Source of the DNA: Deltaproteobacteria bacterium
GTDB lineage: Bacteria > Myxococcota_A > Polyangia > Polyangiales > Houyiibacteriaceae
DNA length: 64,000 bases
Direction of reading: 5' to 3'
NCBI GenBank assembly: GCA_034670305.1
Contig: JAXMNT010000038.1
Location: 14,178-78,177, forward strand
A model generated the notes under the pieces. That model was not told the DNA's origin, searched no databases, and saw only the letters and a program-made list of their open reading frames with translations. Positions 4,691 to 57,193 of the stretch are shown here, piece by piece. Position numbers and translations under genes: made by a program. The first letter of the stretch is position 1. Each line of letters starts with the position of its first letter.

Positions 4691-5049
4691 TGGTGGAGGC
4701 GCAGGGAATCGAACCCTGGTCCGAGAACGATCCAAATCGGCGTCTACGTGCGTATTCCGTGGACTTGAGTTTCGCTCAGACGTGCGCCCACGGACGGGCT
4801 CTTGTCTTCGCTAGCTGCTCTAAATCTCATCACCTCGTCGAGCTGCAACCGTGGTGACCAGTCGATTCAAATGACGCCTCCGAAGGGAGCATCGACAAGC
4901 TCCCTAATTCGGCGGCCCTACAGGTTTTTAAGCTGCGAGAGCGAGTGCGTTGTCGTTGGCACTTATAGGTTCCCACGCTTTTAACGCCGTCGTGAGCCGG
5001 CGGACACGCAACCGATTCTTCTTCGTCCCCGTCGAAACCGATCGCCCCC
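4691..5049 (-). ncRNA. ssrA: tmRNA (SsrA), tag peptide ANDNALALAA*
   Basis: 5' GGGGGCG pairs with 3' CGCCUCC-ACCA with a G3:U alanine determinant; T-arm GGTTCGATTCC; tag ORF at 4928-4960 on the minus strand. Confidence 0.97.
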
Positions 5050-27272: not shown

Positions 27273-27537
27273 TGTAGCCAACCTGGACCGCCTCTGTCTG
27301 GCGATTCGGCGATTCAGGTTGGTCGCGCGCAGTCGGCCCGAGGAACCACGGGCCGTGCAGAACCTTGCCAAGCCTCGCGGTGGCGATGCCGCGCCCCCGT
27401 TCGCGGACTCCGCGGTCTGAAACAATTGGAACCGAGAACACGGTTCACTTCCGCCCAGGATCGGCTCGCCAGGTTGCTCGCGCGGTTCGATCATTTCGTC
27501 GGGGACCGGCCCGCACCCAGCGGACACAGTGCGCCCC

Positions 27538-28620
27538 ATGAAACACGGAATCAGCGCCCTCGGGCTCGCTCTGCCCAGCCGCTACCTCGACGTGCGCGAC
27601 CTCGCCACGCTGCGCGGTGTCGAGCCGGACAAGTACACCAAAGGCCTCGGCTGCCACGAGATCGCCCTCTGCGGACCGGACGAAGACGCGGCGTCGCTGG
27701 GTGCGAAAGCGGCGCGTCGCGCGCTCGAGCGCTGGGGCGGAGACCTCGGTCGCATCGGCCTCTTGGCGGTCGGGACCGAGACCGGCGCCGACATGAGCCG
27801 GCCGATGAGCGCGTTCGTCGCCGACCACCTGAAACTTCGAGGCCGCATGCGCAGCTACGAAGCCAAACATGCCTGCTACGGCGGGACCGTCGCACTTCGC
27901 CAAGCGCTCGAGTGGCGCGCGAGCGGCGCGCATCGAGGACGCGCGGCGCTGGTCGTCGCGACCGATGTCGGGCTGTACGCGCCCGCCGATCCCGGCGAGG
28001 CCACCCAAGGCGCGGGTGCGGTCGCGTTCGTGCTCGACGACGACGCGTTGGTTGCGTCGATCGATCTCGAGAGCCACGCGTTCGCATCGCCCGCCTTCGA
28101 TTTCTGGCGTCCGGTGGGCGAACGGTTCCCCCGCGTCGAAGGTCCCCTCAGTCTCGACTGCTACCGCGAGGCGGTGGAGAAGACGTTCGGCGGCTGGGCC
28201 GGAGAGTCGTCGGTGCAGGATGCGCTTGCGACGCTGGAAGCGGTCGCGTTCCACGTGCCGTTCCCCAAGATGGTGAAGAAGGCGGTGCTGCATCTCGGCG
28301 CCACGCAGGGGTGGGACGAGGGCGATACCGCGACGTTCTTCGAGACGAAGGTCGCTCCGACGATGCGCTGGAACCGCCACATGGGGAACAGCTACACCGC
28401 GGCGCTTTGGTGGAGTGTGGCGTGCGCGCTGGTCGGTCGAAAACCGGGCGACGCGCTCGGTGCGTTCTCCTACGGCTCCGGGTTCGGCAGCGAGCTGTCG
28501 ATCCTGCGCGCGGGCGAGGCGGCCGCCGAGGCGCTCTGGCAAAAGGACGTCGAAGCCGACCTGAGCGCACGTGTCCGCATGGATGCCGCCGAGTACGACG
28601 CTTGGCGCGGGTCGGTCTGA
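27538..28620 (+). CDS. mvaS: Hydroxymethylglutaryl-CoA synthase
   Basis: VGTETGAD, KHACYGGT (catalytic Cys), GEATQGAGAVA, FHVPF, GNSYTA, FSYGSG. Confidence 0.9.
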   Translation: MKHGISALGLALPSRYLDVRDLATLRGVEPDKYTKGLGCHEIALCGPDEDAASLGAKAARRALERWGGDLGRIGLLAVGTETGADMSRPMSAFVADHLKLRGRMRSYEAKHACYGGTVALRQALEWRASGAHRGRAALVVATDVGLYAPADPGEATQGAGAVAFVLDDDALVASIDLESHAFASPAFDFWRPVGERFPRVEGPLSLDCYREAVEKTFGGWAGESSVQDALATLEAVAFHVPFPKMVKKAVLHLGATQGWDEGDTATFFETKVAPTMRWNRHMGNSYTAALWWSVACALVGRKPGDALGAFSYGSGFGSELSILRAGEAAAEALWQKDVEADLSARVRMDAAEYDAWRGSV

Positions 28621-36331: not shown

Positions 36332-36871
36332 CTAGACCAGTTCGAAGTCGCCGGTGAGGGAGTCGGCGATCTGTCCACCGTCGAGCAGCCACGGGAGCTT
36401 CGGGGCATGGCGGCGCGGCACCCGAACGACCACGGGTCGCTCGTAGGTTCGAAATACGAAGTCCCACAGCGGCGAGGTCACGCCGTGGTTCATGAAAGGC
36501 CGCGTGAAGTGGTGGTGAAAATGGTGGCGGCGGGCCCAGCGGCCGTAGAACGTGCGCGGCGCGTGCACATGCAGGTCCCGGTGGACGAACTCGTACGTGC
36601 GCCAGCCGGCGGCAAACCCCCCGACGAAGCAGCCTGCGGCCCCCATGCCGAAAATGGGGGCCGTGATCAGAAACAGCGCGCTCAGCACGGGCACCGCGAG
36701 CAGCAACTTCTTGGTCCACGGGGTGAAGTAGTCGGGTTTGGAGTGATGGCGCAGGTGCTCGCGTGAGCCTTCCGTGCGCCCTTTGGGTTTGTGGCCTCCC
36801 CAGGCGTGGAGCGCGTACTCCGCGAACGTCCAGAAGAAGAACCCGACCAGCGCTGCGACGACGTATTCCAT
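36332..36871 (-). CDS. Fatty acid hydroxylase / sterol desaturase family protein
   Basis: His boxes HAWGGH, HLRHH, HRDLH, HHFHHH; NHGVTSPLWDFVF. Confidence 0.85.
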   Translation of the reverse strand: MEYVVAALVGFFFWTFAEYALHAWGGHKPKGRTEGSREHLRHHSKPDYFTPWTKKLLLAVPVLSALFLITAPIFGMGAAGCFVGGFAAGWRTYEFVHRDLHVHAPRTFYGRWARRHHFHHHFTRPFMNHGVTSPLWDFVFRTYERPVVVRVPRRHAPKLPWLLDGGQIADSLTGDFELV

Positions 36872-36874
36872 AAT

Positions 36875-36889
36875 GTGAACCCCGTTCAC
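36875..36889. promoter_or_regulatory. Palindromic operator candidate at the hydroxylase start
   Basis: GTGAAC-CCC-GTTCAC, 3 nt from the ATG. Confidence 0.5.
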
Positions 36890-37104
36890 TTTTTGACATG
36901 GGTCGAGGGCGCTGTCCAGTGCGGAAGACCACCAAAGTGCGGAACACGTTGCGCGAAACGAAGTTGGGGGGAGGCCGGAGGGGCTTTGCCCCGCGGGCCG
37001 GAGGGGATGCGCCCATCCCCCGAACAGGGTCCGTCAAGAGCAACTGGCCGATGGCGGCGGTTTCCTCAAACGGGGGAGGGCGGCTCCCTGCTAGTCTCCG
37101 CGCC

Positions 37105-44454: not shown

Positions 44455-44523
44455 CCCCACATCCTACACACTCCCAAAGTGGGTTGGGCCGGTCGCACGC
44501 GTTCGGATGCCCGAGCACTCGAA

Positions 44524-44550
44524 CTGGAACTTGTTCTGGAACTTGTTCTG
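44524..44550. promoter_or_regulatory. Tandem 12-bp repeat of near-palindromic boxes upstream of the sterol cluster
   Basis: TGGAACTTGTTCTG occurs twice (44525-44538, 44537-44550). Confidence 0.4.
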
Positions 44551-44789
44551 ATGCGGCGCCGGACAAGCACTCTCATAACGCCCTGGAAACAAACAGCTTT
44601 TCGGCGTACTGCGGACCGTGGATCGGCTGACCTGGATCGGGCGACGGTTCGCTTCCCCGTGGCCACCGCTCGCCGGATTCCTCGCATCCGCGTGGGGTTC
44701 ACTTGCTAACTGGACCCGGTCGACCGCTGCGCGCCGTTCGGATCCGGGGGGATCCGCCGACCGCCAGCAACCGCGGCCGACCCGACATC

Positions 44790-47700
44790 ATGACGCACAC
44801 AACCCACCCTTCGATCGCCAACAGCTACGACGTCGTCGTCGTGGGCGCGGGCCCTGCTGGGGCTGCCGCCTCCGCCGGATTCGCCCGGCGCGGCGCGCGG
44901 GTGCTTCTTCTCGAAGCCAACCCCAAAGCATCGACCCGGCTCGCTGGTGAGTGGATCCACCCAACCGGGGCCGACGTGCTCGCGGGCTTCGGCCTGACCC
45001 CGCATGAAGCGACCGCGTCGCACACCCCGAGCCATGGGTTCGTGGTGTTCCCGGACGACGAGTCCGATCCGATCGTGCTTCCTTACGCCGACGGCGCGGT
45101 CGGGTTCTCGTGCGAGCACCACGATCTGGTGGAGTCGCTTCGGACCCAGGCCCACGCGCTGAGCGGCGTCACCTACCTCGAGCGGGCGCGCGTCACCGAG
45201 ATCTCGGGCGCCCGCGTCCAGTTCGCCTACGAAGGTCAGACCCGTGAGGTCCTGGCCGACCGCATCGTGGGCGCAGACGGACGCTCATCCATCGTGCGCA
45301 AGAGCCTGGGCGGTCCGACCGAAGCCGAGGTGATCTCGCACATGGCCGGCGTCGAACTCAACGACGTCGAAGTTCCGTTCGAAGGGTTTGGCCACGTGCT
45401 TCTCGGCGGACCCGGCCCGGTGCTGCTCTACCGCATCGCGCCTGGTCGCGTGCGCGCGTGTCTCGACATCGAAGTCGGTGCGCCCGGTGCCAGACGCGAT
45501 GCGAGTTACCTGTGGGAAGCGTTCGCGCCCCGCTTTCCGGCGGCGCTCCGACCCGCGCTCCGCAAAGCGCTCCGATCGCAGCGGCTCACCTGGGCATGCA
45601 ACCGGTTCTTGCCGCGTGCGTTCTACGGCGAGGGACGCGCCGCGCTCGTTGGAGACGCGGTCGGCTTCTACCACCCGCTCACCGCGAGCGGCATCAGCAT
45701 TGGGCTTCGCGATGCCGAAGCGCTCGTCCGCTCGAACGACGTGGCCAGCTACCAGTCGGAGCGCGAAGCCGCGTCCTATGTGCCGGAGCTGCTCGCGAAC
45801 GCGCTCTACCAGGTGTTCACCCGCGAAGACGCCAGTGCAGCGTCGATCCGAGCGGCCGTGTACGACGTCTGGCGCGCCAGCCCGTCGGAGCGTCAGCGCA
45901 CGATGCGGATCCTCTCCGGTTCCGAGATCCGCACCGGTCAGTTCGGCAGCGCGTTCGTACGCGTCGCCCTTCGAGCGCTTCGTTCTCAGGCGGCCGACCA
46001 GGGCGTGGCCCGTTTCGCGACCGAGCTCGGCCGCTTCCTGGAGTTCGCCCAGTGGCCTGGCGCGACGGTGGTGCCCGCAGCGATTCGCCGACGCGTCCGC
46101 CCGACCGGCACCGCGCTGCAGCCGCTCCGCGGTCTCGGCGTGAAGCCGACGCTTCCCGAGCTCCCCGAGGTGTCCAGCGCACAGACCTCCGTGACGGTCG
46201 ATGTCGACGCGTTGCTCGCGAAGGTTGCCGACGACGTGTCCCAGGCGTCCGTGATCGCGCGGCTCGCCGAACGTCTCGAGACCCACAGCCGACAGGGCGA
46301 CCTGGACGCCGTGGTGCTCGACTCCGAGTCGCTGCTTGCGATGTCCGCCGAGACGCCCGCCGACCGGCTGCACCGCGCGCGCGCACTCGCCACCACCCAG
46401 CGCCGGTACCCGGGCGCACTGGCGCGCCACATCGGGCCCGAGCTTCGCCGGATCGCCGGCCGCGTGCGCGCCGACGAAGCCGTGACGAGCCACCCGCGCG
46501 ATGTGGCCCTCGCGCTCGAGACCCTCTTTCACTGCGGTGTGCCCGTGTACGACGCGCTTTGTCGCCGGTTCATCCGCGCGCTTGGCGCCGCGCAGACCGA
46601 AGACGGAAGCTGGGGCGGTGCGGTGACCACCGCGATCGTGGCGCGCGCCCTGCTCGTGTCCGAAGCTCCGCTTTGGGCCGCCATCGAGCGGGGGCTCTCG
46701 AGCCTCGATGCATCGATCACGCTCGGGGCGGAAGCCGCCGAAGCACTGACCCTCTACCGAGCGCGCCGCGCCATGCGCCTCACCGCCCGGACCGCCCGCG
46801 CCTCCCAGGACGCTCAGCCGGCCGACCATGCGTACTGTTCCGAGGCACTGCTCGCGGTCTCGCGCAGCTTCGCGCGTCCAATCGAGATGCTGCCCGGCGA
46901 TCTTCGGAGCGCCGTCACTTGTGGCTACTTGCTCTGCCGCATCGCCGACACGGTCGAAGACCACCACGGGTTCACCAGGGACGAACGCGACGAGCGCTAC
47001 GGAACCTTCCTGTCCGCCATCGAAGGCCCGGCCGACAGCGCGCCGGTCGCGCGGTTCGAGGAACTGTTCGCAGACGTCGAAGGCGAGCCGGCCGAGATCG
47101 ACCTCTGCCGCAACCTCTCGTCGGTGTTGCGGGTGTTCCGCGCGCTGCCTGAGGCGATGCAGACCAAGACGATTCGCTGGGTCGCCGAGATGACCCGCGG
47201 CATGCAGATCTACTCGCACCGTCCGCCCGGCAGCGACGACTACACCGCGCTGCACACGGTCGAGGACCTCGAGCGCTACTGCTACTTCGTGGCGGGCACC
47301 GTGGGCCACATGCTCACCGACCTCTTCGTCGAAGAGATCGGCGAAGTCGGCACCAGCGTGGAGCACGCGCTGCGCACCGAAGCCGAAGCGTTTGGTGTTG
47401 GCCTGCAGTTCGTGAACATCCTCAAGGACGTGACCGACGACCGCGAGCGACTCGTCTCGTTCATTCCGCGGACGTCCTGTTTCAAAGAGGGGCTGCAACT
47501 CTCGCAGCTCACCGATCCAGCGCGCCGGTCCGAAGCCCACCAGGTCGTCGCGCCGCTCTTCGACATCGCCCAGGGCCGCCTCGACCGCGCCCTCAACTAC
47601 GTGCTGGCCATCCCGGCCGAACACACCGCCGTGCGGCTCTTCTGTCTGCTGCCGCTCTGGATGGCAGTTCGCACGCTGGTCCATGCGCGCGGCAACGACG

Positions 47701-47867
47701 CGATGTTCGTGACCGGTGCGCCAGTGAAGATCGCCCGCGCCGAAGTCGAACAGCTGATCGCCGACTGCATGGCGCACGTGGGTCAGGACGACCTTCTTCG
47801 CGTTCGTTACGACGCGCTCTGGCGCGCCCCACTTTCCGCCCCGCACACCCAGAGCGCCGTCCACTGA
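44790..47867 (+). CDS. Squalene epoxidase - squalene synthase fusion protein
   Basis: N-terminal: VVGAGPAG, RLAGEWIHPTG, GADG, GDAVGFYHPLTASG, LANALYQVF. C-terminal: YLLCRIADTVED, YCYFVAGTVG, GLQFVNILKD, FCLLPLWMAVRTL. One uninterrupted ORF. Confidence 0.88.
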   Translation: MTHTTHPSIANSYDVVVVGAGPAGAAASAGFARRGARVLLLEANPKASTRLAGEWIHPTGADVLAGFGLTPHEATASHTPSHGFVVFPDDESDPIVLPYADGAVGFSCEHHDLVESLRTQAHALSGVTYLERARVTEISGARVQFAYEGQTREVLADRIVGADGRSSIVRKSLGGPTEAEVISHMAGVELNDVEVPFEGFGHVLLGGPGPVLLYRIAPGRVRACLDIEVGAPGARRDASYLWEAFAPRFPAALRPALRKALRSQRLTWACNRFLPRAFYGEGRAALVGDAVGFYHPLTASGISIGLRDAEALVRSNDVASYQSEREAASYVPELLANALYQVFTREDASAASIRAAVYDVWRASPSERQRTMRILSGSEIRTGQFGSAFVRVALRALRSQAADQGVARFATELGRFLEFAQWPGATVVPAAIRRRVRPTGTALQPLRGLGVKPTLPELPEVSSAQTSVTVDVDALLAKVADDVSQASVIARLAERLETHSRQGDLDAVVLDSESLLAMSAETPADRLHRARALATTQRRYPGALARHIGPELRRIAGRVRADEAVTSHPRDVALALETLFHCGVPVYDALCRRFIRALGAAQTEDGSWGGAVTTAIVARALLVSEAPLWAAIERGLSSLDASITLGAEAAEALTLYRARRAMRLTARTARASQDAQPADHAYCSEALLAVSRSFARPIEMLPGDLRSAVTCGYLLCRIADTVEDHHGFTRDERDERYGTFLSAIEGPADSAPVARFEELFADVEGEPAEIDLCRNLSSVLRVFRALPEAMQTKTIRWVAEMTRGMQIYSHRPPGSDDYTALHTVEDLERYCYFVAGTVGHMLTDLFVEEIGEVGTSVEHALRTEAEAFGVGLQFVNILKDVTDDRERLVSFIPRTSCFKEGLQLSQLTDPARRSEAHQVVAPLFDIAQGRLDRALNYVLAIPAEHTAVRLFCLLPLWMAVRTLVHARGNDAMFVTGAPVKIARAEVEQLIADCMAHVGQDDLLRVRYDALWRAPLSAPHTQSAVH

Positions 47868-47904
47868 AAGATTTCGGCTCGTTTCGCGAGCCAGTGAGAA
47901 CACC

Positions 47905-49008
47905 ATGAAACACGCAAGCGATGCTCCCATTCTCGTGACCGGCGGCGCCGGTCATGTCGGCGCCAACCTCGTTCACCGCCTCGTCGAAGACGGCCACCGT
48001 GTGCGTGTGTTGCTGCGCGCCGGCGAGAACAACGAATCCGTGCAAGGGCTCGACGTCGAGTCCGCGATCGGCGACCTGCGCGATCCGACTTCGCTGCGCG
48101 AAGCGGTCAAGGGATGCCGCCGGGTCTTTCACGTCGCCTCGATGGTCAGCACCATCGACGGTGACGCCGACCACCGCCGCGCGATCTACGAGACCAACGT
48201 CGTCGGCACCCGTCATCTGCTCCGCGCCGCGCGCGAGCACTCGGTCGAGAAGTTCGTCCTGACGAGCTCCTTCTCTGCGGTCGGCTACGACCTCGACGAG
48301 ACCGACCAGCCCGCCCACGAAGGCATGGGGTTCTACCCGTTCCACCGCGCGATGCCCTACGAGCGCACCAAGGTGCTCCAGGAGCACGAAGTGCTCAAAG
48401 CCGTCGTCGAAGGTCTCGATGCGTGCATCGTCACGAGCTGCGCAGTCATCGGCGCGCACGACTACCTGCCGAGCCGCATGGGCCGCACGATGGCCAAGTT
48501 CGCCAACCGGAAGCTGAACGCCTACGTGCCGGGCGGCTTCGAGTTCGTCGCCGCGCGCGACATCGTGGCGGGCCACCTGCTCGGCATGGAACGCGGCCGC
48601 GTCGGACAGAAGTACGTCATCGCGAGCCAGTTCCTCACGCTCGACGACATCTGGGACATGCTCGAAGAGATCACCGGCCAGCCGCGCCCGCGCTTCAAGG
48701 TGCCGAGCGCCGCGCTCTTGCCGATCGCCGAGCTCAGCAGCTGGATGATGTACCGCATCAGCCCGCGCTTCCCCCAGCTCCTCACACCGGGCGCGATCCG
48801 GCGGCTGCAGCTCCGCCGCCACGCGGACACGAGCAAAGCCCGCCGCGAGCTCGGCTTCGTGCCGACCCCGATGGAGGAAGCGTTTGCCGAGGCCTACGCG
48901 TTCCACTTCTCGAGGGGCGCGATCACCCACCCCGAGGCCAAGAAGCCCGTTGCGCCGAAACCCTCGCGCACCGCGCCCATCCACTCCGACATCCGAATCC
49001 ACGCCTGA
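47905..49008 (+). CDS. NAD(P)-dependent extended SDR (3beta-HSD/HpnA-like; candidate SdmB-type sterol C-4 decarboxylase/reductase)
   Basis: TGGAGHVG, YERTK (YxxxK); next to a Rieske gene inside the sterol cluster. Confidence 0.8.
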   Translation: MKHASDAPILVTGGAGHVGANLVHRLVEDGHRVRVLLRAGENNESVQGLDVESAIGDLRDPTSLREAVKGCRRVFHVASMVSTIDGDADHRRAIYETNVVGTRHLLRAAREHSVEKFVLTSSFSAVGYDLDETDQPAHEGMGFYPFHRAMPYERTKVLQEHEVLKAVVEGLDACIVTSCAVIGAHDYLPSRMGRTMAKFANRKLNAYVPGGFEFVAARDIVAGHLLGMERGRVGQKYVIASQFLTLDDIWDMLEEITGQPRPRFKVPSAALLPIAELSSWMMYRISPRFPQLLTPGAIRRLQLRRHADTSKARRELGFVPTPMEEAFAEAYAFHFSRGAITHPEAKKPVAPKPSRTAPIHSDIRIHA

Positions 49009-49011
49009 GCC

Positions 49012-50145
49012 ATGAGCAGAGTTTACGTTCAGCAAGATGCCCCGCCGCCTTCGTTCGAAGAGGCGAAGAACACCCGTCAGAAGGTGCGCGCCGCCGGCAT
49101 GCACCCCGACTACTGGTACCCCGCGGCCTGGGCCAAAGATCTCAAGCCCGGCGAAGTGAAGGAAGTCGTCTTCTGGAAGCGCAGCATCGCGCTCTTCCGG
49201 GGCGACGACGGGCAGGTCCGCGCCATCGACAACCGGTGCGCGCACCGGCAGCTCAAGCTCACCACCGGCCACGTCGAGGGCTGCAACCTCGTCTGCCCGT
49301 ACCACGGTTGGGCGTACGACGGGCAGGGCCGCGTCGTGGACATTCCGCACTCGCTCTTCGGTCGCAAGTTCCCGAAGTTCCAGGTGCCCTCGATCCCCGT
49401 GAAGGTGAAGCACGGCCTCATCTTCATCTTCCCCGGCGACCCGGAGAAGTCCGAGGACGTGGCGCCCCCGGACATCCCTGAGCTCGAAGGCAAGAACCCC
49501 TGGCCGACCGTCTGCGTGGACTCCACCTGGAAGGCCCACCACTCGATGATCATGGACAACGTGAGCGACTTCACGCACGCGTTTCTCCACCGTCGCTTCA
49601 AGCCCTTCGACGACGCCAAGCTCATTCACTACGAGACCATCGGCGACACCGTCGAACTCGAGTACGAGACCAAGGTCGGACGCGGACCCATCAGTGGACT
49701 CTTCGTCGACCGAAGCCGCGTCGACTCCGACTCGATGAAGCTCGGGTACGAGTACCCGTACCAGCGCAGCAACACGGACAACCAGATCAAACACTGGTGC
49801 TTCGTGCGGCCGATCGACGAACGCACGACGGCGAGCTTCTTCATCTTCTACTTCCGCTCGTTCCGCGTGCCATTCACGAAGGTCCCGCTCCCGTTCAACG
49901 TGATGCGCGGGCTGTTGGCGATCGGCAAGAAGCTCACGGTTCAGCCGCTCCTCGAAGAAGACGGAGTCGCGGTCGAGTGCGAGCAGGACGGGTACGACCG
50001 CCACTGGGACGCACCGCTCGCGGAGCTCAACCCGGTCGTGAAGTCCTTTCAGGAACTGACCATTCGCAAGTGGGAGGAGTACCTGGCCAGCCAGACCCTC
50101 ACCACCATCAGCAAGAAGTCGAAAGACGAAGAGGCGCGGGTATGA
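49012..50145 (+). CDS. Rieske non-heme iron oxygenase (candidate SdmA-type sterol C-4 methyl oxidase)
   Basis: CAHR...CPYHGW Rieske ligands; DNVSDFTHAFLH mononuclear Fe motif. Confidence 0.82.
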   Translation: MSRVYVQQDAPPPSFEEAKNTRQKVRAAGMHPDYWYPAAWAKDLKPGEVKEVVFWKRSIALFRGDDGQVRAIDNRCAHRQLKLTTGHVEGCNLVCPYHGWAYDGQGRVVDIPHSLFGRKFPKFQVPSIPVKVKHGLIFIFPGDPEKSEDVAPPDIPELEGKNPWPTVCVDSTWKAHHSMIMDNVSDFTHAFLHRRFKPFDDAKLIHYETIGDTVELEYETKVGRGPISGLFVDRSRVDSDSMKLGYEYPYQRSNTDNQIKHWCFVRPIDERTTASFFIFYFRSFRVPFTKVPLPFNVMRGLLAIGKKLTVQPLLEEDGVAVECEQDGYDRHWDAPLAELNPVVKSFQELTIRKWEEYLASQTLTTISKKSKDEEARV

Positions 50146-51443
50146 CCACCACGACGGACGAACGAAGCTCCCGGATCCCGGGGTTCTACCGCCTCGACGT
50201 CGAAGAGCGGCACGACGAGCTGCGGGAACGTTTCGGGCTCAGCACCGAAGATCTCGACATCCTCAAAGACGGCAGCCGGCTCGGGGTCGACCGCGCGGAC
50301 AAGATGGTCGAGAACTGCGTGGGCGTCTTCGGATTGCCGATCGGTCTTGGGCTGAACTTCCACATCAACGGACGCGACTTCACGATCCCGATGGTGGTCG
50401 AAGAGCCGTCCGTGGTGGCGGCCGTGAGCAACATGGCGCGCACCGTTCGCAAGTCCGGAGGGTTCCGCGCCGAGGCCGACGAATCGTTGATGATCGGCCA
50501 GGTCCAGATCCTCGACGTCGAAGACGCGGACGTCGCGGTGGCGGCGCTCGAACAGAACAAGCAGCGCTTGCTCGACGAAGCCAACGCCGTGCATCCCAAC
50601 ATGAAGCGCCGCGGCGGCGGAGCGCTCGACATCGAGGTGCGCCGTTTCGACGCGCCGTACCCGATGCTGGTGCTGCACCTCATCGTGGACTGCGGCGAAG
50701 CCATGGGTGCCAACGCGATCAACGCGATGGCCGAAGGGGTCGCACCGCTCGTCGAGCGCCTCACCGGCGGCCGCGTGAACCTGCGGATCCTCTCGAACCT
50801 CGCCGACCGCCGCTGCGCGCGGGCGTGGTGCTCGATCCCCGAGCTCCTTCTCGCAGGCAACGGGTTCACCGGTGCCGAAGTCGCCGAGGGCATCGTCGAG
50901 GCCTACCAGTTCGCGGCGGTCGATCCCTACCGCGCCGCCACCCACAACAAGGGTGTGATGAACGGCGTGGACGCGGTCGCGATCGCCACGGGCAACGACT
51001 GGCGCGGCGTCGAAGCGGGCGCCCACGCGTTCGCAGCGCGGGATGGCAAGTACACCTCGCTCACCAAGTGGTGGCGCGCGGACGGCCAGCTCCATGGCTT
51101 CATCGAGTTGCCCATGGCGGTCGGTGTGGTCGGTGGCAGCACCAACGTGCACCCGACCCTCCGGGTCATGCGCAAGATCCTCAGCGTGGAGAGCGCCGCG
51201 GAACTCGGCATGGTCATGGCCACCGTCGGTCTCGCTCAGAACATGGGCGCGCTGCGCGCACTGGCGACCGAAGGCATTCAGCGCGGACACATGAGTCTGC
51301 ACGCGCGCTCGGTGGCACTCGCCGCTGGTGCCGAAGGCAGGCTCGTCGACGAGATCGCTCGCGAGCTCATCGCGGCCGAGTCGATCAAACTCGACACCGC
51401 ACGCGACCTCATCGCCGCCAAGCTGCGCCGCAAGGTCGGCTGA
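50142..51443 (+). CDS. mvaA: HMG-CoA reductase, class II
   Basis: MVENCVG, EEPSVVAA, EAMGANAIN, ILSNL, RAATHNKGVMNG, GIQRGHMSLH; ATGA overlap with the Rieske gene. Confidence 0.93.
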   Translation: MTTTTDERSSRIPGFYRLDVEERHDELRERFGLSTEDLDILKDGSRLGVDRADKMVENCVGVFGLPIGLGLNFHINGRDFTIPMVVEEPSVVAAVSNMARTVRKSGGFRAEADESLMIGQVQILDVEDADVAVAALEQNKQRLLDEANAVHPNMKRRGGGALDIEVRRFDAPYPMLVLHLIVDCGEAMGANAINAMAEGVAPLVERLTGGRVNLRILSNLADRRCARAWCSIPELLLAGNGFTGAEVAEGIVEAYQFAAVDPYRAATHNKGVMNGVDAVAIATGNDWRGVEAGAHAFAARDGKYTSLTKWWRADGQLHGFIELPMAVGVVGGSTNVHPTLRVMRKILSVESAAELGMVMATVGLAQNMGALRALATEGIQRGHMSLHARSVALAAGAEGRLVDEIARELIAAESIKLDTARDLIAAKLRRKVG

Positions 51444-51490
51444 GCTGCGGCCGGGCCGCGCGCCCGGCCGTCCCCTTCCGGAGAACGTCC

Positions 51491-53575
51491 ATGGCCTCGT
51501 CCCTCGATCTCGAACTCAGCCTCGACCGTGGGGTGCGCCGGCTCGTCGATCTCGCCGACACGCACCACGCAAGCCACGATGGCGACGACGGCACCGACCG
51601 GGTGCTGCGTCACTTCGAGGGCGAAGACGTCTGGAACAGCATGTTGCCCGCGCAATACGCGATGGCGATGCACGTGATGGGGGAGGAACTCTCCGAGGAG
51701 CGCAAGCGGCGCATCGTGCGGCAGCTCGAGCACGAGCAACTTCCGGGCGGACTCTGGGGGCTGCACCGGTTCGGGGAGCCTTCGCTCTTCATGACCGCGC
51801 TCTCTTACGTCGCCGCGCGTTGCGTCGGCGTGCCCGCAGACGACCCCCGTTTGGCAGCGGCTCGGACGATGTTCGCGAGCGAAGACGTTCGCGCCATTCC
51901 GAGTTGGGGCAAGGCGTGGCTCTCGCTGATGAACGTCTACGGCTGGGAGGGCGTCAACGCCGTGCCGCCGGAAGCATGGCTCCTCCCAGAGCGCCTGCCG
52001 CTCCATCCGGCGAACTACTACTGCCACACGCGGCTCATCTACATGGGCATGGCGAGCGTGTTCGGCCAGAAGCTCCGTGCGCCCCGCAGCGCGCTGGTCG
52101 ATGCCCTTCGCGCCGAGCTCTACCCGAACCGAGACTACGCCTCGATCGACTTCCGGAGCGCGCGCCACCTGCTCCGCGAAGACGATCTCTGGGCACCGCC
52201 GACCAAGACGCTCAAGGCGATGTACGAGGCGGTCAACTTGTTCGAACGCGTGCAGTCGAAGATCCCCGGCCTCGGCCTGCGGGCGCGCTGTCTCGCCGAG
52301 CTTCGGGAGCGCATGAAGTTCGAGCTGCGCAGCTCGGACCACACCTGTCTCTCGCCGGTGAACGGGTTGCTCTTCATGCTCACCCTCTGGGCCCACGATC
52401 CGAAGGACCCGGATCTCGCCGAACAGCGACGCCGTTTCGAGGGCTGGATCTGGGAGGACGAAGACGAAGGACTCCGCATCTGCGGCGCGCGGAGCGCGAC
52501 GTGGGACACGAGCTTCGCGATCCAGTCGCTCGTGGCTTCGCGTCCATCCGTGTCGCCGTCGACCCGAACCCGTCTCGACGCCGTCGTCGAGGAGTCGGTG
52601 GCGTGGCTTCGGTCTCAGCAGATCACCGCGCCCCAACGCCCGCTCGACGAGTACAAACGCGCGTACCGAGTGGACCCAACCGGCGGCTTCTGCTTCGCGG
52701 GCATCTGGCACGGCTGGCCAGTGAGTGACTGCACCGCCGAAGCGCTCGAAGCGTTCCTCGAAGCGGACGCGATCACCCCGCACGATCCTCAGGTGCTGAC
52801 CGCAGGCATTCGGTTCCTGCTCCAGTGTCAGAACCCCGACGGCGGTTTCGGAAGCTACGAAGCCCGCAAGTCGATGGAGATGGAGTGGATGAACCCCGCC
52901 GAGATGTTCGGCGACTCCATGACCGAACGGTCGTACGTCGAGTGCACCGCGAGCAACCTCATCGCGCTCGTGCGGGTGCGTGCACGGCTCCAGCAAACGG
53001 GCGGCGAGGGCCAGCTGCTTCGCCGCATGGATCAGGCGATCCGCCAAGCCGAACGGCTGCTTCGCAAACGTCAGAACGAAGACGGTTCCTGGGACGGCGC
53101 CTGGGGCGTCGCGTTTCTCTACGGCACGCTCTTCGGCATCCGCGGGCTGCGCGCCGCCGGCGCCGACGCGTCCGACCCGGCGATCGCTGCGGCCACCGAG
53201 TTCATTCGAGGCCACCAGCGCGCGGACGGCGCCTGGGGCGAACACTGGCGCACCTGTCTGACCGACCGGTACGAGCCGTTCGACCACGGGCACATCGTGC
53301 AGACCGCGTGGGCGGTCCTGGCCCTCGCGAACGCGTCCGAAGCGCCGAGCCCCGAAGACGAAGCGGCGATCCTGCGCGGCTGCGCCTGGCTCGCCTCTCA
53401 ACAGCAAGCCGATGGCGACTGGCCCGAGCAGGAGTTTTCGGGCGTGTTCTTCCGCACCGCACTCATCGACTACCGGGCCTACCGTCGGGTGTTCCCGGTC
53501 TGGGCTCTGAGCTATGGTGCCGCGCTTCACAAGCGACTCGGCGCCCATCGGCCCGCCGCCCAACCCGTCGCCTGA
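51491..53575 (+). CDS. osc: Oxidosqualene cyclase (2,3-oxidosqualene sterol cyclase)
   Basis: HGWPVSDCTAE (DCTAE, not the DXDD of squalene-hopene cyclase), YYCHTRLIY, QNPDGGFGSYE, SYVECT, QW repeats, GAWGVAFLYGT. Confidence 0.93.
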   Translation: MASSLDLELSLDRGVRRLVDLADTHHASHDGDDGTDRVLRHFEGEDVWNSMLPAQYAMAMHVMGEELSEERKRRIVRQLEHEQLPGGLWGLHRFGEPSLFMTALSYVAARCVGVPADDPRLAAARTMFASEDVRAIPSWGKAWLSLMNVYGWEGVNAVPPEAWLLPERLPLHPANYYCHTRLIYMGMASVFGQKLRAPRSALVDALRAELYPNRDYASIDFRSARHLLREDDLWAPPTKTLKAMYEAVNLFERVQSKIPGLGLRARCLAELRERMKFELRSSDHTCLSPVNGLLFMLTLWAHDPKDPDLAEQRRRFEGWIWEDEDEGLRICGARSATWDTSFAIQSLVASRPSVSPSTRTRLDAVVEESVAWLRSQQITAPQRPLDEYKRAYRVDPTGGFCFAGIWHGWPVSDCTAEALEAFLEADAITPHDPQVLTAGIRFLLQCQNPDGGFGSYEARKSMEMEWMNPAEMFGDSMTERSYVECTASNLIALVRVRARLQQTGGEGQLLRRMDQAIRQAERLLRKRQNEDGSWDGAWGVAFLYGTLFGIRGLRAAGADASDPAIAAATEFIRGHQRADGAWGEHWRTCLTDRYEPFDHGHIVQTAWAVLALANASEAPSPEDEAAILRGCAWLASQQQADGDWPEQEFSGVFFRTALIDYRAYRRVFPVWALSYGAALHKRLGAHRPAAQPVA

Positions 53576-53634
53576 GTCTCCATCTCCACCCGCGCCACCG
53601 GCCGGGTTCAACCGCCAGCCAGAGAGTACGCACC

Positions 53635-54624
53635 ATGTCCGGAGTCAGCCGCGAGTCCTTCCAATCGACCGTCGACGAGTACCAGGGTCTTCACGACGAG
53701 AGCGGAAGCGACGTCGAGCAGCGCAAGGCCCAGTACACGAAGCTCGTGAACCAGTACTACGACCTGGCCACGGACTTCTACGAGTTCGGTTGGGGCGAGC
53801 ACTTCCACTTCGCGCCGCGATGGAAGAAAGAGAAGTTCCTCGCGAGCCTCGAGCGTCACGAGCGGCACCTCGCGCGCAAGCTCCGGCTCTACCCGGGCAT
53901 GGAAGTCCTCGATGTCGGCTGCGGCGTCGGTGGACCCGCGCGCTACATCGCGAAGCACACCGGCGCCAAGATCGTCGGCGTGAACAACAACGCCTACCAG
54001 ATCAGCCGCGGCGAGAAGCACACCCAGAAGGCCAAGCTCAACCACCTGGTCAGCTTCCAGAAGGCGGACTTCATGGCGCTCCCGGCCGAGGACGGACGTT
54101 TCGACGCCGTCTACACGATCGAAGCGAGCTGCCACGCGCCCGACCGCGTGAAGCTCTTCCAGGAGTTGCGGCGGGTGATGAAGCCGGGCGCGCTCTTCGG
54201 TGGTTACGAGTGGTGTCTCACCGACCAGTACGACGAGTCGAACCCCGCGCACGTGAAGATCAAGAAGGACATCGAGATCGGCAATGGTCTCCCCGACCTC
54301 TCGCACACCTCGGTGATCGACCAGTCGCTCGAGGCGGCCGGGTTCGAAGTCCTCGAGACCCAAGACCTCGCGCCGACCGGCGACCCGGAGACCCCGTGGT
54401 ACCTGGCGCTCACCGGCGGCGATCTCTCGCTGGCGAGTTTCCCGCGCACGCCGATCGGGCGAACCGTGACCAACTTCGCGACCAAGCTCATGGAGAAGGT
54501 CGGCATCGCGCCGAAGGGCACCCAGGCCGTCAGCAGCTTCCTCAACCAGGGCGCCGACGCGCTCGTGGCGGGCGGCGAGACCGGCACCTTCACGCCCATG
54601 TACTTCTTCGTCGCCCGCGCCTAG
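53635..54624 (+). CDS. smt: Sterol C-24 methyltransferase (SMT/ERG6-like)
   Basis: YYDLATDFYEFGWGEHFHFA (region I), LDVGCGVGGPAR, IEASCHAP, KPGxxFGGYEW, IEIGNGLP, FTPMYFF. Confidence 0.93.
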   Translation: MSGVSRESFQSTVDEYQGLHDESGSDVEQRKAQYTKLVNQYYDLATDFYEFGWGEHFHFAPRWKKEKFLASLERHERHLARKLRLYPGMEVLDVGCGVGGPARYIAKHTGAKIVGVNNNAYQISRGEKHTQKAKLNHLVSFQKADFMALPAEDGRFDAVYTIEASCHAPDRVKLFQELRRVMKPGALFGGYEWCLTDQYDESNPAHVKIKKDIEIGNGLPDLSHTSVIDQSLEAAGFEVLETQDLAPTGDPETPWYLALTGGDLSLASFPRTPIGRTVTNFATKLMEKVGIAPKGTQAVSSFLNQGADALVAGGETGTFTPMYFFVARA

Positions 54625-54870
54625 CGGTCGGAACTGGCCGGGTCGCCGGCCTCCTACACGGGGCCTTCTACACTGGCCTCACACTGGCTCGGCCGCCTAT
54701 GGTGGCCATGGCCGTGCCTCGATCCGATGGGCTGACGGTTCGGTGGGGCTGGGGCCACAAACCCACATGGAGTGACGCTCCTCACTGCCGCTCGACGCGT
54801 AGGTGAAGGGGAGGGCGGGATCCGCTATGTTTCGCGCGACCTTCCTTCCCGGATCCTTCCTGGAGACCCC

Positions 54871-56391
54871 ATGTTTGCCCGTTTGAACTTCACCCACCTC
54901 GCTTTCTTCGCCCTCGCTTCCACCCTCGCACTCTCCGGTTGCGGACGATCGAGCCTCTTGAGCGATCTCTCGGACGGCGGCGGCGTGCGCCGGGACGCGG
55001 GCGATGGCGGTGGCGGTGGCGGCTGTGGCGACGGGCTCTGTGGCGCGACGGAGAACTGCGCGACGTGCCCGGCCGACTGCGAGATGTGTCCGGACGAGTG
55101 CGGCGACGGACTCTGCGCACCGACCGAAGACTGTTCCACCTGCGCGCCCGACTGCGGTTCCTGCCGCGACTGCGGCGATGGATTCTGCGACCCGGACCTC
55201 ATGGAGAACTGCGAGACGTGTCCCGCCGACTGCGACGCATGCGCTGGTTGCGGCGATGGGCTCTGCGGTATGGGTGAGAACTGCGCTTCGTGTGCGGAAG
55301 ACTGCGGCGCGTGCGTGCGGTGCGGAGACGGGCTCTGTCGCGACGGCGAGACCTGCTCCACCTGTCCGGGCGACTGCGGATTCTGCGAGGAATGCGGCGA
55401 CGGAACGTGCAGCGCGAGCGAGAACTGCAGCTCGTGTCCGAGCGACTGCGGCGTGTGCATGACTTGCGGCGACGGCCGGTGTGGCGCGGGCGAAGATTGC
55501 GCTTCTTGCCCCGACGACTGCGGCCGCTGTGAGACCTGCGGCGATGGCGAGTGTTCGGACGCCGAGGACTGCTTCTCCTGTCCACGCGACTGCGGCCGCT
55601 GTGAGTTCTGCGGCGACATGACCTGCTCCGGCAGCGAGACCTGCGGCAGCTGTCCCGAAGACTGCGGCCTCTGCGAGCGCTGTGGCAACGGCCTTTGTGC
55701 CCCGAGCGAAGACTGCTCCACCTGTCCGCGCGACTGCGGTCTCTGCGAGTTCTGCGGCGACGCCACCTGTCAGGCGACCGAGTCCTGCAGCAGCTGCCCG
55801 GGCGACTGCGGCGCGTGCCGGACCTGCGGAGACGGCTTCTGCCGCGCGGGCGACGGCGAGGACTGCCTCACCTGTGCGGCGGACTGTGACCCTTGTCCGG
55901 AGTGTGGCAACGGGGAATGCACGCCGGGCATCGAGAACTGCTCCACCTGCCCGGCCGACTGCGGCCGATGCGACCCGTGCGGCGACGGACGCTGCCGTCG
56001 CCCTGAAGACTGCGCGAGCTGCTCTGCGGACTGCGGCGTGTGTTCGGTCTGCGGCAACGGCATGTGCGAGGGCGACGAGTTCGAGACGTGCGTCAACTGC
56101 CCGGCCGACTGCGGCATGTGCGGCGGCGTCACCTGCATCGAGGTCGCGACTTGCATCTTCGGCTGCGTCGACTTCGGCGGCGGTGGCGGTGGACCGCCGG
56201 ACTTCTCGTTCTCGTGCGTGGCGGATTGCTCGGCGCGGGCCTGTGCCGACGTCCGGTTCTTCGTGGACGAGGTCATCAACTGCGCCATCCGTGAGATCTT
56301 CACGTGCGGCGACATCAGCTGCGTCATGGACAACTGCTCCGAAGCGATCGGCGCGTGTCTGAGCGCCCCCCGCTGCCCGCCCACGATGTGA
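54871..56391 (+). CDS. Cys-rich repeat lipoprotein (CGDGxC...ExCxxCPxDC repeats)
   Basis: Lipobox LSGC; about 15 tandem ~24-aa modules. Confidence 0.85.
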   Translation: MFARLNFTHLAFFALASTLALSGCGRSSLLSDLSDGGGVRRDAGDGGGGGGCGDGLCGATENCATCPADCEMCPDECGDGLCAPTEDCSTCAPDCGSCRDCGDGFCDPDLMENCETCPADCDACAGCGDGLCGMGENCASCAEDCGACVRCGDGLCRDGETCSTCPGDCGFCEECGDGTCSASENCSSCPSDCGVCMTCGDGRCGAGEDCASCPDDCGRCETCGDGECSDAEDCFSCPRDCGRCEFCGDMTCSGSETCGSCPEDCGLCERCGNGLCAPSEDCSTCPRDCGLCEFCGDATCQATESCSSCPGDCGACRTCGDGFCRAGDGEDCLTCAADCDPCPECGNGECTPGIENCSTCPADCGRCDPCGDGRCRRPEDCASCSADCGVCSVCGNGMCEGDEFETCVNCPADCGMCGGVTCIEVATCIFGCVDFGGGGGGPPDFSFSCVADCSARACADVRFFVDEVINCAIREIFTCGDISCVMDNCSEAIGACLSAPRCPPTM

Positions 56392-56457: not shown

Positions 56458-56595
56458 CGCGTTCTCGGGGCCACTGGGTCGAAACGTCCCGGGATGGTGA
56501 TGCCCCGCGAACACAAAACTTCACAATTCGCCGCCCGAACGACACCGTGAGAATTCCCTTTGATTACAGATGCTTGCGCACGGAGGGCAGGGTTT

Positions 56596-56668
56596 TGGAC
56601 CGATTGGTCAAGATAATGGGTTGACGGAGCGCTTTCCTGGTCCCAAATGTTTTGGACCGGTCGGTCCA
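56596..56668. promoter_or_regulatory. Two palindromic TetR-type operator candidates upstream of the ECF sigma gene
   Basis: TGGACCGATTGGTCAA (56596-56611) and TGGACCGGTCGGTCCA (56653-56668). Confidence 0.6.
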
Positions 56669-56695
56669 CAAGGGTGGATCGAAGTGGAGGCGGCG

Positions 56696-57193
56696 ATGAC
56701 GACGGCGACGATTGATGACGCAACGATTCGAGAGATGGAACCCGCGCTGATGCGCTACGCGCGGCAGCGCGTCGGGCCCGACCTGGCAGCCGACGTGGTC
56801 CAGGAGACCTGGGTCGCGGCGATCAAAGGCGTCGGCGGATTCGCTGGCCGGTCGTCTCTCAAGACCTGGCTGACGAGCATCCTGCGCCGCAAGATCGTCG
56901 ACGTGCACCGTCGCAAGCGTCCGCAGGTGAGCTTCGAAGAGCACCACACGCCCCCGGCCATGGCGCCGAGGGAGCGGCTCGACGACGAAGCAGCGCTGGA
57001 GGTGGTCGGCGCCTCACTCGACGCGCTTCCAAAGCGCGAGCGGGAAGCGGTCACGCTGGTGGACGTCCAGGGCTACGACCGGGACGAGGCCGCCCAAGAG
57101 ATGGGCGTGTCCCGCGGTGCGCTTCGCGTGATGCTCCACCGTGGTCGTGGGCGGTTGAAGAAGAAGCTCGAGTCTGCCGACCACGCGCTCTAA
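56696..57193 (+). CDS. ECF RNA polymerase sigma factor
   Basis: ADVVQETW, FAGRSSLKTWLTSI, region 4 EAAQEMGVSRGALRVMLHRGR; GGAGG RBS. Confidence 0.92.
   Translation: MTTATIDDATIREMEPALMRYARQRVGPDLAADVVQETWVAAIKGVGGFAGRSSLKTWLTSILRRKIVDVHRRKRPQVSFEEHHTPPAMAPRERLDDEAALEVVGASLDALPKREREAVTLVDVQGYDRDEAAQEMGVSRGALRVMLHRGRGRLKKKLESADHAL

Follow-up and report, generated by a model that had tools for sequence, protein, structure and literature searches.

A six-gene cluster from an uncultured Myxococcota bacterium with predicted capacity for de novo synthesis of C-24-alkylated sterols

Within a 64,000-nt stretch of an uncultured Myxococcota genome (contig JAXMNT010000038.1, assembly GCA_034670305.1; the whole stretch is called the window here), we evaluated six plus-strand genes at positions 44790-54624 that probably constitute a sterol biosynthesis cassette with the capacity to make C-24-alkylated sterols de novo. 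In gene order, these encode a squalene epoxidase/squalene synthase (SE/SQS) fusion (44790-47867, 1025 aa; Pfam SE 105.8 bits and SQS_PSY 145.9 bits in one open reading frame, ORF), an SdmB-like NAD(P)-dependent reductase/dehydrogenase (47905-49008, 367 aa; Epimerase 117.2 and 3Beta_HSD 85.8 bits), an SdmA-like Rieske oxygenase of the 4-methylsterol monooxygenase type (49012-50145, 377 aa; Rieske 81.3 and VanA_C 44.9 bits), a class II HMG-CoA reductase (HMGR; 50142-51443, 433 aa; HMG-CoA_red 359.7 bits), an oxidosqualene cyclase (OSC; 51491-53575, 694 aa; SQHop_cyclase_N/C 151.7/161 bits, with a VSDCTAE motif) and a sterol C-24 methyltransferase of the SMT/ERG6 family (53635-54624, 329 aa; Sterol_MT_C 84.8 and Methyltransf_11 74.7 bits). 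The successive gaps are 37, 3, -4, 47 and 59 nt, the HMGR start overlapping the SdmA-like stop by 4 nt, and the first ATG (44790) and last stop (54624) are identical to the limits given by an initial annotation made from the sequence alone. That annotation's six gene families stand at those coordinates on the plus strand by Pfam, in an order that recurs in independent assemblies far beyond chance; Pfam, NCBIfam and Protein Data Bank (PDB) sequence matches agree with each claimed family, some of them below NCBI cut-offs, and the DCTAE-type cyclase and the SdmA/SdmB-type C-4 genes it named are both present, the latter as best full-length NCBIfam matches though below cut-off.

The host is known only as a metagenome-assembled genome (MAG), a 7.93-Mb draft in 105 contigs (the window lies on C38) with an estimated 96.2% completeness and 0.36% contamination. 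OSC, SE, SQS, the SdmA-like gene and SMT are each single-copy in it, and no hopene cyclase was found among its contigs. At third codon positions, the six genes have a GC content (GC3) of 0.84-0.92, no different from aconitase and HMG-CoA synthase elsewhere in the window, whose overall GC is 0.66-0.70. Long antisense ORFs running across the cluster were set aside as high-GC artefacts, the Pfam domains and GC3 signal sitting in the plus frames.

Evaluating the fusion protein by domain, we found an N-terminal FAD monooxygenase of the squalene epoxidase type (44817-46013, +, about residues 10-408; Pfam, NCBIfam and PDB) that matches human squalene monooxygenase 6c6n over residues 10-358 (E 2.8e-28, PDB by sequence), and a C-terminal squalene synthase domain (46776-47771, +, about residues 663-994; Pfam, TIGR01559 and PDB) that matches squalene synthases over residues 663-994 (E 8e-16 to 4e-11; 7wgh at E 7.9e-16, 1ezf at E 3.7e-14). 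In an alignment of fusion proteins (A1, 54-62% identity), the GxGxxG (VVVVGAGPAG), GADGRSS and GDAVGFYHPLTASG motifs of the epoxidase, among them those for FAD, are invariant, as are the two Asp-rich motifs of the synthase, DTVED and DVTDD. Between the two domains lies a middle module (46062-46859, +, residues 425-690) with no Pfam, NCBIfam or PDB sequence match and no catalytic motif seen, which AlphaFold2 (19 sequences; pLDDT 86.2, pTM 0.73) models as an entirely helical hairpin repeat of 13 helices of at least 4 residues, 10 of them in a repeat core at residues 64-238. Foldseek with this model returned nothing at E<=1e-3; its top matches are alpha/alpha-toroid proteins, among which human OSC 1w6j ranks first (E 0.011, TMq 0.41), ahead of transcobalamin, C3d/TED and the small myxobacterial cyclase 8pak. 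A protein atlas built on a language model gave a weak lead (0.78) from the module to SQHop_cyclase-like clusters, which agrees with the Foldseek resemblance to cyclase-like folds, and we interpret the module, with moderate confidence, as a degenerate cyclase-like helical repeat. Predicted docking of the module onto the cyclase scored 0.00 against a mark of 0.32, a result that speaks neither for nor against binding.

To place the fusion and its neighbours, we ran tblastn with the window's proteins against two sets of loci, one obtained with the SMT (the best 80 of 280 relatives) and one with the fusion protein (the best 80 of 110); 7 contigs are common to both. Among the 80 fusion-query loci, 29 have SE and SQS as a single ORF, with an inter-domain segment of 55-411 aa, and each of these is a MAG (26 with Myxococcota-type names, 2 labelled Deltaproteobacteria and 1 labelled uncultured bacterium); in cyanobacterial isolates and other Polyangia the two genes are adjacent but unfused. 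Both this single-ORF fusion and the conserved, helical, cyclase-like module between its domains look new; our full-text literature searches yielded no description of a natural SE-SQS fusion, the only fusions mentioned by Brown et al. 2023 (PMC10070321) being of squalene monooxygenase with OSC, though paper supplements and figures, which lay outside that search, may show one. A protein of this build may also interest those who engineer triterpenoid pathways. A second fusion type was seen in L107-L113, L115 and L148, with middle modules mostly of 380-411 aa (90 aa in L108, 233 aa in L148) that carry clearer Q-x-x-DGSW-type repeats; these are followed by a distant cyclase (33-38% identity) with the cycloartenol-synthase-like residues Y/H/I or Y/N/V, and no Sdm-like genes or SMT lie near them. 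Locus L016 (6555-9998) holds yet another arrangement, SE and OSC in one 1148-codon open frame adjoining an SMT.

The cyclase matches human lanosterol synthase 1w6k (E 9.7e-118), its VSDCTAE motif aligning with the catalytic D455, and it scores 443.9 bits with TIGR01787 (cut-off 322.7). Product specificity in this family follows three residues, lanosterol synthases having T381, C or Q449 and V453, and cycloartenol synthases Y, H and I at the same places. In 1w6k numbering, the window's enzyme has the lanosterol-type V453, the cycloartenol-type H449, and an alanine at 381, beside a one-residue gap, that is neither T nor Y. Of the 121 cyclase motif hits across the fetched loci, 104 show this GARS/H/V pattern, some of them in loci from cyanobacterial records; the others are Y/H/I (10), Y/N/V (6) and one stray match. 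Cyclases of Polyangiaceae and Sandaracinaceae are described as lanosterol synthases, Labilithrix excepted (Lee & Welander 2024, 10.1101/2024.11.01.621555), and the Calothrix cyclase gives lanosterol (Lee et al. 2023, PMC10202945). From its residues and relatives, lanosterol is the likeliest product of the window's cyclase, and we consider it a probable one.

For the methyltransferase, a PF08498 Sterol_MT_C domain (84.8 bits, cut-off 21.7), the sole such match in the genome, accompanies a class I SAM methyltransferase domain. Because the PDB holds no SMT structure, the best matches there being unrelated small-molecule methyltransferases, we mapped residues through motif spacing, setting G84 on the GWG motif. 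A set of 25 residues is reported as conserved across all functional SMTs (Brown & Welander preprint, 10.64898/2025.12.19.695621), and the window's protein has every one: Y74, T78, Y81, F83, G84-W85-G86, F89-H90-F91, D125xGxGxxGP133, G147, Q154, D189, E195, G217 and G268 at a constant offset of 32, and W286, G333, L341, G352, F357 and P359 after shifts of 1 and 6 residues, so that both Region I (YEFGWGxxFHF) and Region II (DxGxGxxGP) are intact. Position 249 is asparagine instead of glycine (N217, in IEIGNGLP), as in the three closest relatives. In the same preprint, Gly249 was needed for 24-isopropyl products, and replacing it by N, A, S or T left the production of C29 sterols in place, with G249N yielding no C30 sterols. 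Given N249 and these mutants, the enzyme is predicted to methylate, possibly to ethylate, and not to propylate; N249 argues against propylation only and not against membership of the SMT family. As for related proteins, in vitro assays of 14 SMT homologues from environmental sources showed sterol alkylation by 12, two of which are encoded in a cluster of a Sandaracinus MAG (PMC10070321). Two tandem SMT genes, 75% and 53% identical to the window's, follow the cyclase in L103 (15325-17590; also G005:C93:15325-17596) and resemble that published two-SMT cluster.

The two genes upstream of HMGR have SdmB (NF052578, 305.6 bits, E 6e-91) and SdmA (NF052579, 397.4 bits, E 4.7e-119) as best NCBIfam matches over their full lengths, and we call them SdmB-like and SdmA-like because both scores fall short of the equivalog cut-off of 600. 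Together they form a Rieske oxygenase and NAD(P) reductase pair, 3 nt apart, inside a sterol cluster. [quoted passage not shown]

Regarding precursor supply, the cluster HMGR belongs to class II (TIGR00532 400 bits, cut-off 259.95; PDB class II enzymes 6dio at E 5e-133 and 1qax at E 9.3e-128) and is one of three paralogues in the genome, the other two (G000:C3:36928-38106, also L181:7800-9281, and G000:C97:10019-11092) being 51% and 42% identical to it. Since the C3 copy adjoins polyprenyl synthetase and menaquinone-type genes (chorismate-binding and TPP enzymes), the paralogy suggests pathway-dedicated copies. An open frame for HMG-CoA synthase (27421-28620, +; HMG_CoA_synt_N 93 and HMG_CoA_synt_C 67.8 bits), the sole match in the genome, lies 16 kb upstream of the cluster and would supply the HMGR substrate. 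With this gene present and no LytB/IspH match found in the 96%-complete genome, mevalonate is probably the organism's only isoprenoid route.

Looking across genomes, we found the order fusion, SdmB-like, SdmA-like, HMGR, OSC, SMT in 9 other Myxococcota MAG contigs (L087, L088, L090, L092, L095, L098, L099, L103 and L106), one of which is a closed 9.07-Mb Polyangiales chromosome (L004/L090). In L091, L093 and L097 the collinear set is interrupted by a contig end; in L094 no SMT follows within 3.4 kb, L096 shows no Rieske match and L100 has neither Sdm-like gene. More broadly, SMT, OSC, SE, SdmB-like and SdmA-like genes occur together in 44 of the 80 SMT loci. By tblastn, the window's flanking genes have no counterparts beside the relatives' clusters, so it is the cluster itself that is conserved rather than its neighbourhood.

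We also evaluated the remaining contigs for later pathway steps. A P450 on contig C33 with a C-terminal Fer4 domain matches, over residues 20-518, the 551-residue CYP51 chain 6mcw (E 5.4e-164), which we take to be the ferredoxin-fused CYP51 of Methylococcus. Three nt downstream of this gene lies an 8,14-sterol-reductase-like ORF (G000:C33:36295-36930, minus strand, 212 aa; also L084:8293-8931 and L167:1501-2136) whose fold is NTF2-like (Foldseek returned 451 hits at E<=1e-3, with NTF2-like, SnoaL-like and ketosteroid-isomerase structures ranking first) and which adjoins CYP51 in 12 of 13 relatives' loci and is present in 43 of 88 genomes of the host's family. Its residues Y48, Y54, Y89, Y91, D144 and D147, invariant in alignment A4, correspond at an offset of +11, used in place of a direct alignment to the Methylococcus protein, to the 8,14-Bsr pocket residues Y37, Y43, Y78, Y80, D133 and D136; fold, ferredoxin-linked CYP51 neighbour and all six pocket residues are thus those of 8,14-Bsr. 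Other contigs encode one homologue of ERG4/ERG24 (230 bits) and a protein resembling EBP (47.8 bits). Among the 160 sterol-cluster loci, CYP51 homologues occur in 73 and ERG24-type reductase homologues in 65, and in L097 and L102 the gene next upstream of the fusion encodes an EBP homologue (78% and 76% identity). The CYP51, C-14 reductase and isomerase genes that the initial annotation proposed to seek beyond the cluster have candidates in the CYP51-ferredoxin, 8,14-reductase-like, ERG24-type and EBP-like genes.

Two further candidates from this survey stand apart. A CMAS-family methyltransferase (L085:10411-11262, minus strand), 12 nt upstream of the ERG24-type gene on the same strand, is not counted as a sterol gene because it has no homologue in the 160 sterol loci. 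A fatty-acid-hydroxylase-family gene (window 36332-37033, minus strand, 44.9 bits), 8 kb upstream of the cluster, likewise has no homologue in other genomes' sterol loci, so nothing ties it to sterols.

Within the host's family, represented by 88 species genomes including the host, which is the sole member of its genus, SMT homologues (E<=1e-40) are present in 62 genomes and in 15 of 18 genera, and OSC (E<=1e-60) in 45 genomes. The prevalence of SMT across these species genomes looks new: SMT is the rule, not the exception, in this myxobacterial family, and efforts at cultivation, lipid analysis and heterologous expression thus have a concrete target in it. Genus g17 (G030-G084) includes many genomes of about 4 Mb with an SMT homologue and no OSC, which hints that g17 SMTs methylate acquired sterols or another substrate.

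Turning to expression, a 329-nt intergenic region (44461-44789, +) separates the fusion gene from a divergent lipoprotein-like gene and is the probable promoter region, while 147 nt separate SMT from the next gene downstream. At 44526-44549 this upstream region holds two tandem copies of a 12-nt repeat, GGAACTTGTTCT, each containing the palindrome GAACTTGTTC; these are the only exact copies of GGAACTTGTTCT in the 7.93-Mb genome. In 7 of the 29 fusion loci (two pairs of them close relatives), the palindrome GAACNNGTTC lies upstream of the SE match at a distance of no more than 700 nt, against about 0.5-0.9 expected from a background of 0.024-0.046 per kb. The leader palindrome may be an operator, and the enrichment of GAACNNGTTC upstream of the fusion gene is a lead only. 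Scanning for sigma-70-like promoters gave 0 sites against 0.7 expected and is uninformative for this phylum; a reading of the GGAAC repeat as an extracytoplasmic function (ECF) promoter was dropped for want of a fitting -10 element at the proper distance. Terminator-like sites numbered 5 against 6.8 expected by chance, all inside genes and none in intergenic gaps, and Rfam over the whole window found only a transfer-messenger RNA (tmRNA) gene (4691-5049, minus strand; RF00023, 169.9 bits) and no riboswitch near the cluster. The gene downstream of SMT (54772-56391, +) encodes a protein of Cys-rich repeats (103 of its 539 residues are Cys; repeats like CGDGxCxxxExCxxCPxDCGxC), whose N-terminus looks like that of a lipoprotein and which matches no Pfam or NCBIfam model; an ECF sigma factor gene (56570-57193) follows.

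Taking these gene identities together, homology would give the following route. The cluster HMGR would raise mevalonate flux; the C-terminal domain of the fusion would join two molecules of farnesyl diphosphate (FPP) to squalene and its N-terminal domain would convert this to 2,3-oxidosqualene; the cyclase would then form a tetracyclic sterol, most likely lanosterol, from which the SdmA/SdmB-like pair would take off one or both C-4 methyls. SMT would move a methyl from SAM to C-24 of a delta-24 sterol, giving 24-methyl(ene) and possibly 24-ethyl(idene) but no 24-isopropyl products, and C-14 demethylation by CYP51-ferredoxin, reduction by the 8,14-reductase homologue and/or the ERG24-type enzyme, and isomerization by the EBP-like protein would be carried out from outside the cluster. 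The initial annotation had inferred that the bacterium makes 24-alkyl sterols itself from one transcription unit: its gene identities and the genomic capacity for C-24-alkyl sterols hold up, but the six genes are only part of the pathway, as the C-14 steps, double-bond reductases and isomerase are encoded on other contigs and HMG-CoA synthase 16 kb upstream.

Several points weigh against this interpretation, which rests on the genes of an organism known only as a MAG and makes the capacity for 24-alkyl sterols plausible. The synthase domain scores 111 bits with TIGR01559 (cut-off 286.75), the cyclase 648 bits with TIGR03463 (cut-off 851), and both Sdm-like proteins stay under their equivalog cut-off. 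With H449 and A381, the cyclase product could be lanosterol, parkeol or cycloartenol. SdmAB of E. salina alone took off no C-4 methyl, a second reductase being required (PMC10202945), so that the extent of C-4 demethylation is not readable from sequence. The SMT numbering follows motif spacing and not an alignment with yeast ERG6, and since the conserved residues are intact in 4 of the 11 SMTs found inactive in the preprint (10.64898/2025.12.19.695621), sequence is no guarantee of activity. In the genome, no C-5 desaturase, delta-7 reductase or 24(28)-reductase was assignable; the ERG4/ERG24 family has one homologue only; of 19 weak TIGR02032 matches for a GGR-type C-24 reductase, none exceeds the cut-off and none was assigned; and of 8 FA_hydroxylase matches, three hit a sterol locus, in every case L011, and none was assigned as C-5 desaturase.

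Could the cluster be an artefact of assembly or binning, or eukaryotic contamination? The SMT, OSC, SE and SQS families are known above all from eukaryotes, and the draft genome is split into 105 contigs, but we hold this to be extremely improbable, as GC is uniform over the window, the cluster's GC3 equals that of flanking housekeeping genes, its genes have no introns and sit among bacterial-type genes (SdmA/SdmB-like, class II HMGR, ECF sigma factor, tmRNA), the contamination estimate is low, and the closed Polyangiales chromosome has the same order. Moreover, a single 31.9-kb contig spans 41000-58000 with 0 differences in each of four sequencing runs, and because one contig spans the cluster in each, we take it to be neither chimeric nor eukaryotic contamination; together with the shared order in independent assemblies, this speaks against the chimeric contig that the initial annotation named as a possible refutation. 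These four runs belong to one study, labelled plastic metagenome, that may be the source of the genome and so are not independent of it; marine metagenome runs X5-X8 share 9-14% of words with the cluster stretch, and we draw no habitat claim from them. As to whether the six genes are one operon, their spacing suggests a single transcription unit. A real if lesser possibility is that internal promoters drive subsets, for instance HMGR-OSC-SMT apart from the rest: the 37-, 47- and 59-nt gaps could hold promoters, and the modules appear separable because a 1.4-kb insert lies between HMGR and OSC in L096 and L106 and L094 lacks a nearby SMT, whereas the 3-nt gap and 4-nt overlap tie SdmB-like, SdmA-like and HMGR together and no gap holds a terminator-like site.

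At the level of chemistry, the cyclase might instead make cycloartenol, parkeol or another triterpenoid, in which case the downstream steps would differ. This would fit its H449, its alanine in place of T381 and its sub-threshold TIGR03463 score, and we judge it unlikely, since V453 is of the lanosterol type, the true Y/H/I cyclases of other loci look different (QGYN...HGWPI), and the GARS/H/V pattern is common to loci of cyanobacterial records; a cyanobacterial cyclase, that of Calothrix, whose motif may differ, gives lanosterol (PMC10202945). Alternatively, the cluster makes sterols while its SMT is inactive or acts elsewhere than on C-24 of the cell's own sterols, for example on sterols from eukaryotic prey or biofilm partners, so that no 24-alkyl sterols arise de novo. 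An SMT can exist without de novo synthesis, because in genus g17 SMT homologues occur in 36 of 55 genomes and OSC in 20 of 55, and G071 and G074 (97-98% complete, 5-6 contigs) have SMT without OSC; inactive homologues are also on record, 2 of 14 in Brown et al. 2023 (PMC10070321) and 11 in the preprint (10.64898/2025.12.19.695621). Against this, the window's SMT ends the cluster, starting 59 nt past the cyclase gene, keeps that place in nine other MAGs and has every residue conserved in functional SMTs, and we give this alternative only a small chance. We continue to favor a cassette that would make lanosterol-derived, C-24-alkylated sterols.

The interest of such a capacity lies in the reading of 24-alkyl steranes as fossils of eukaryotes such as algae and sponges. 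The window contributes one such case in a good assembly: the genome, which comes from a surface-attached community of marine type, is 96% complete, a compact cassette holds the full upstream pathway, and nuclear-tailoring genes are identifiable elsewhere. A more elaborate version is speculative, and we would not bet on it as a whole: the three-part protein would be a natural two-step channel from FPP to oxidosqualene that, with its own HMGR paralogue, forms a portable, self-sufficient sterol cassette and, with the CYP51-ferredoxin/8,14-reductase pair, yields 24-methylated 8(14)- or 8-unsaturated sterols. On that view this family of marine Myxococcota, uncultured and probably free-living, with SMT homologues in 62 of its 88 species genomes, would be a widespread source of 24-alkyl steranes among bacteria that are not symbionts.

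Among known systems, the nearest are bacterial. The premise of novelty behind the initial annotation, which notes that C-24-alkyl sterols are classically treated as eukaryotic biomarkers, is outdated, as Brown, Olagunju, Giner & Welander 2023 reported functional bacterial SMTs in clusters with sdmAB and OSC, a marine Sandaracinus MAG among them, and named marine myxobacteria as best candidates with no isolate confirming (PMC10070321), and Hoshino & Gaucher 2021 had already listed SMT in myxobacteria (PMC8237579). What we add to this is incremental: a three-part fusion, an SMT prevalent throughout the family and a product prediction at the level of residues. The Sandaracinus MAG cluster (PMC10070321) shares with the window SMT, OSC, sdmA/sdmB homologues, a myxobacterial host, C-14 demethylation encoded elsewhere and the same biomarker implication, but has two SMTs, one ethylating and one methylating, where the window has one; its main text, figure and supplements aside, names no SE-SQS fusion and no HMGR. 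The S. amylolyticus cluster (10.1101/2024.11.01.621555) is likewise from Polyangia, a single cluster combining sterol and isoprenoid-precursor genes with a lanosterol-type cyclase, but it leads to cholesterol via a GGR-type C-24 reductase, and the main text makes no mention of SMT. Unfused clusters in the order HMGR-SQS-SdmB-SdmA-SE-OSC, found in L146, L150, L152, L158, L160 and L162, may be of this S. amylolyticus type.

Methylococcus capsulatus (PMC10202945, PMC7947880, PMC13277303) is similar in its Sdm proteins, on which the best-matching models are based, in its CYP51 fused to ferredoxin, and in an NTF2-fold gene after CYP51 with the six 8,14-Bsr pocket residues. The window's Sdm-like scores, however, are roughly half the equivalog cut-offs, the host genome also has an ERG24-type reductase, and the methanotrophs as described in these sources remove a single C-4 methyl and have no SMT. 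Bacterial fused squalene monooxygenase/OSC genes (PMC10070321), of which L016 holds one, also join the epoxidase to a neighbouring pathway enzyme, whereas in the window the partner is the preceding enzyme, squalene synthase, attached through a helical module (55-411 aa across the fusions), and the cyclase is separate. Finally, the eukaryotic enzymes ERG6/SMT1, ERG7/LSS, ERG1/SQLE and ERG9/FDFT1 belong to the same protein families and have the same catalytic motifs, but the window differs from the eukaryotic pathway in its non-homologous SdmA/SdmB-type C-4 pair, its class II HMGR and its clustered, partly fused genes.

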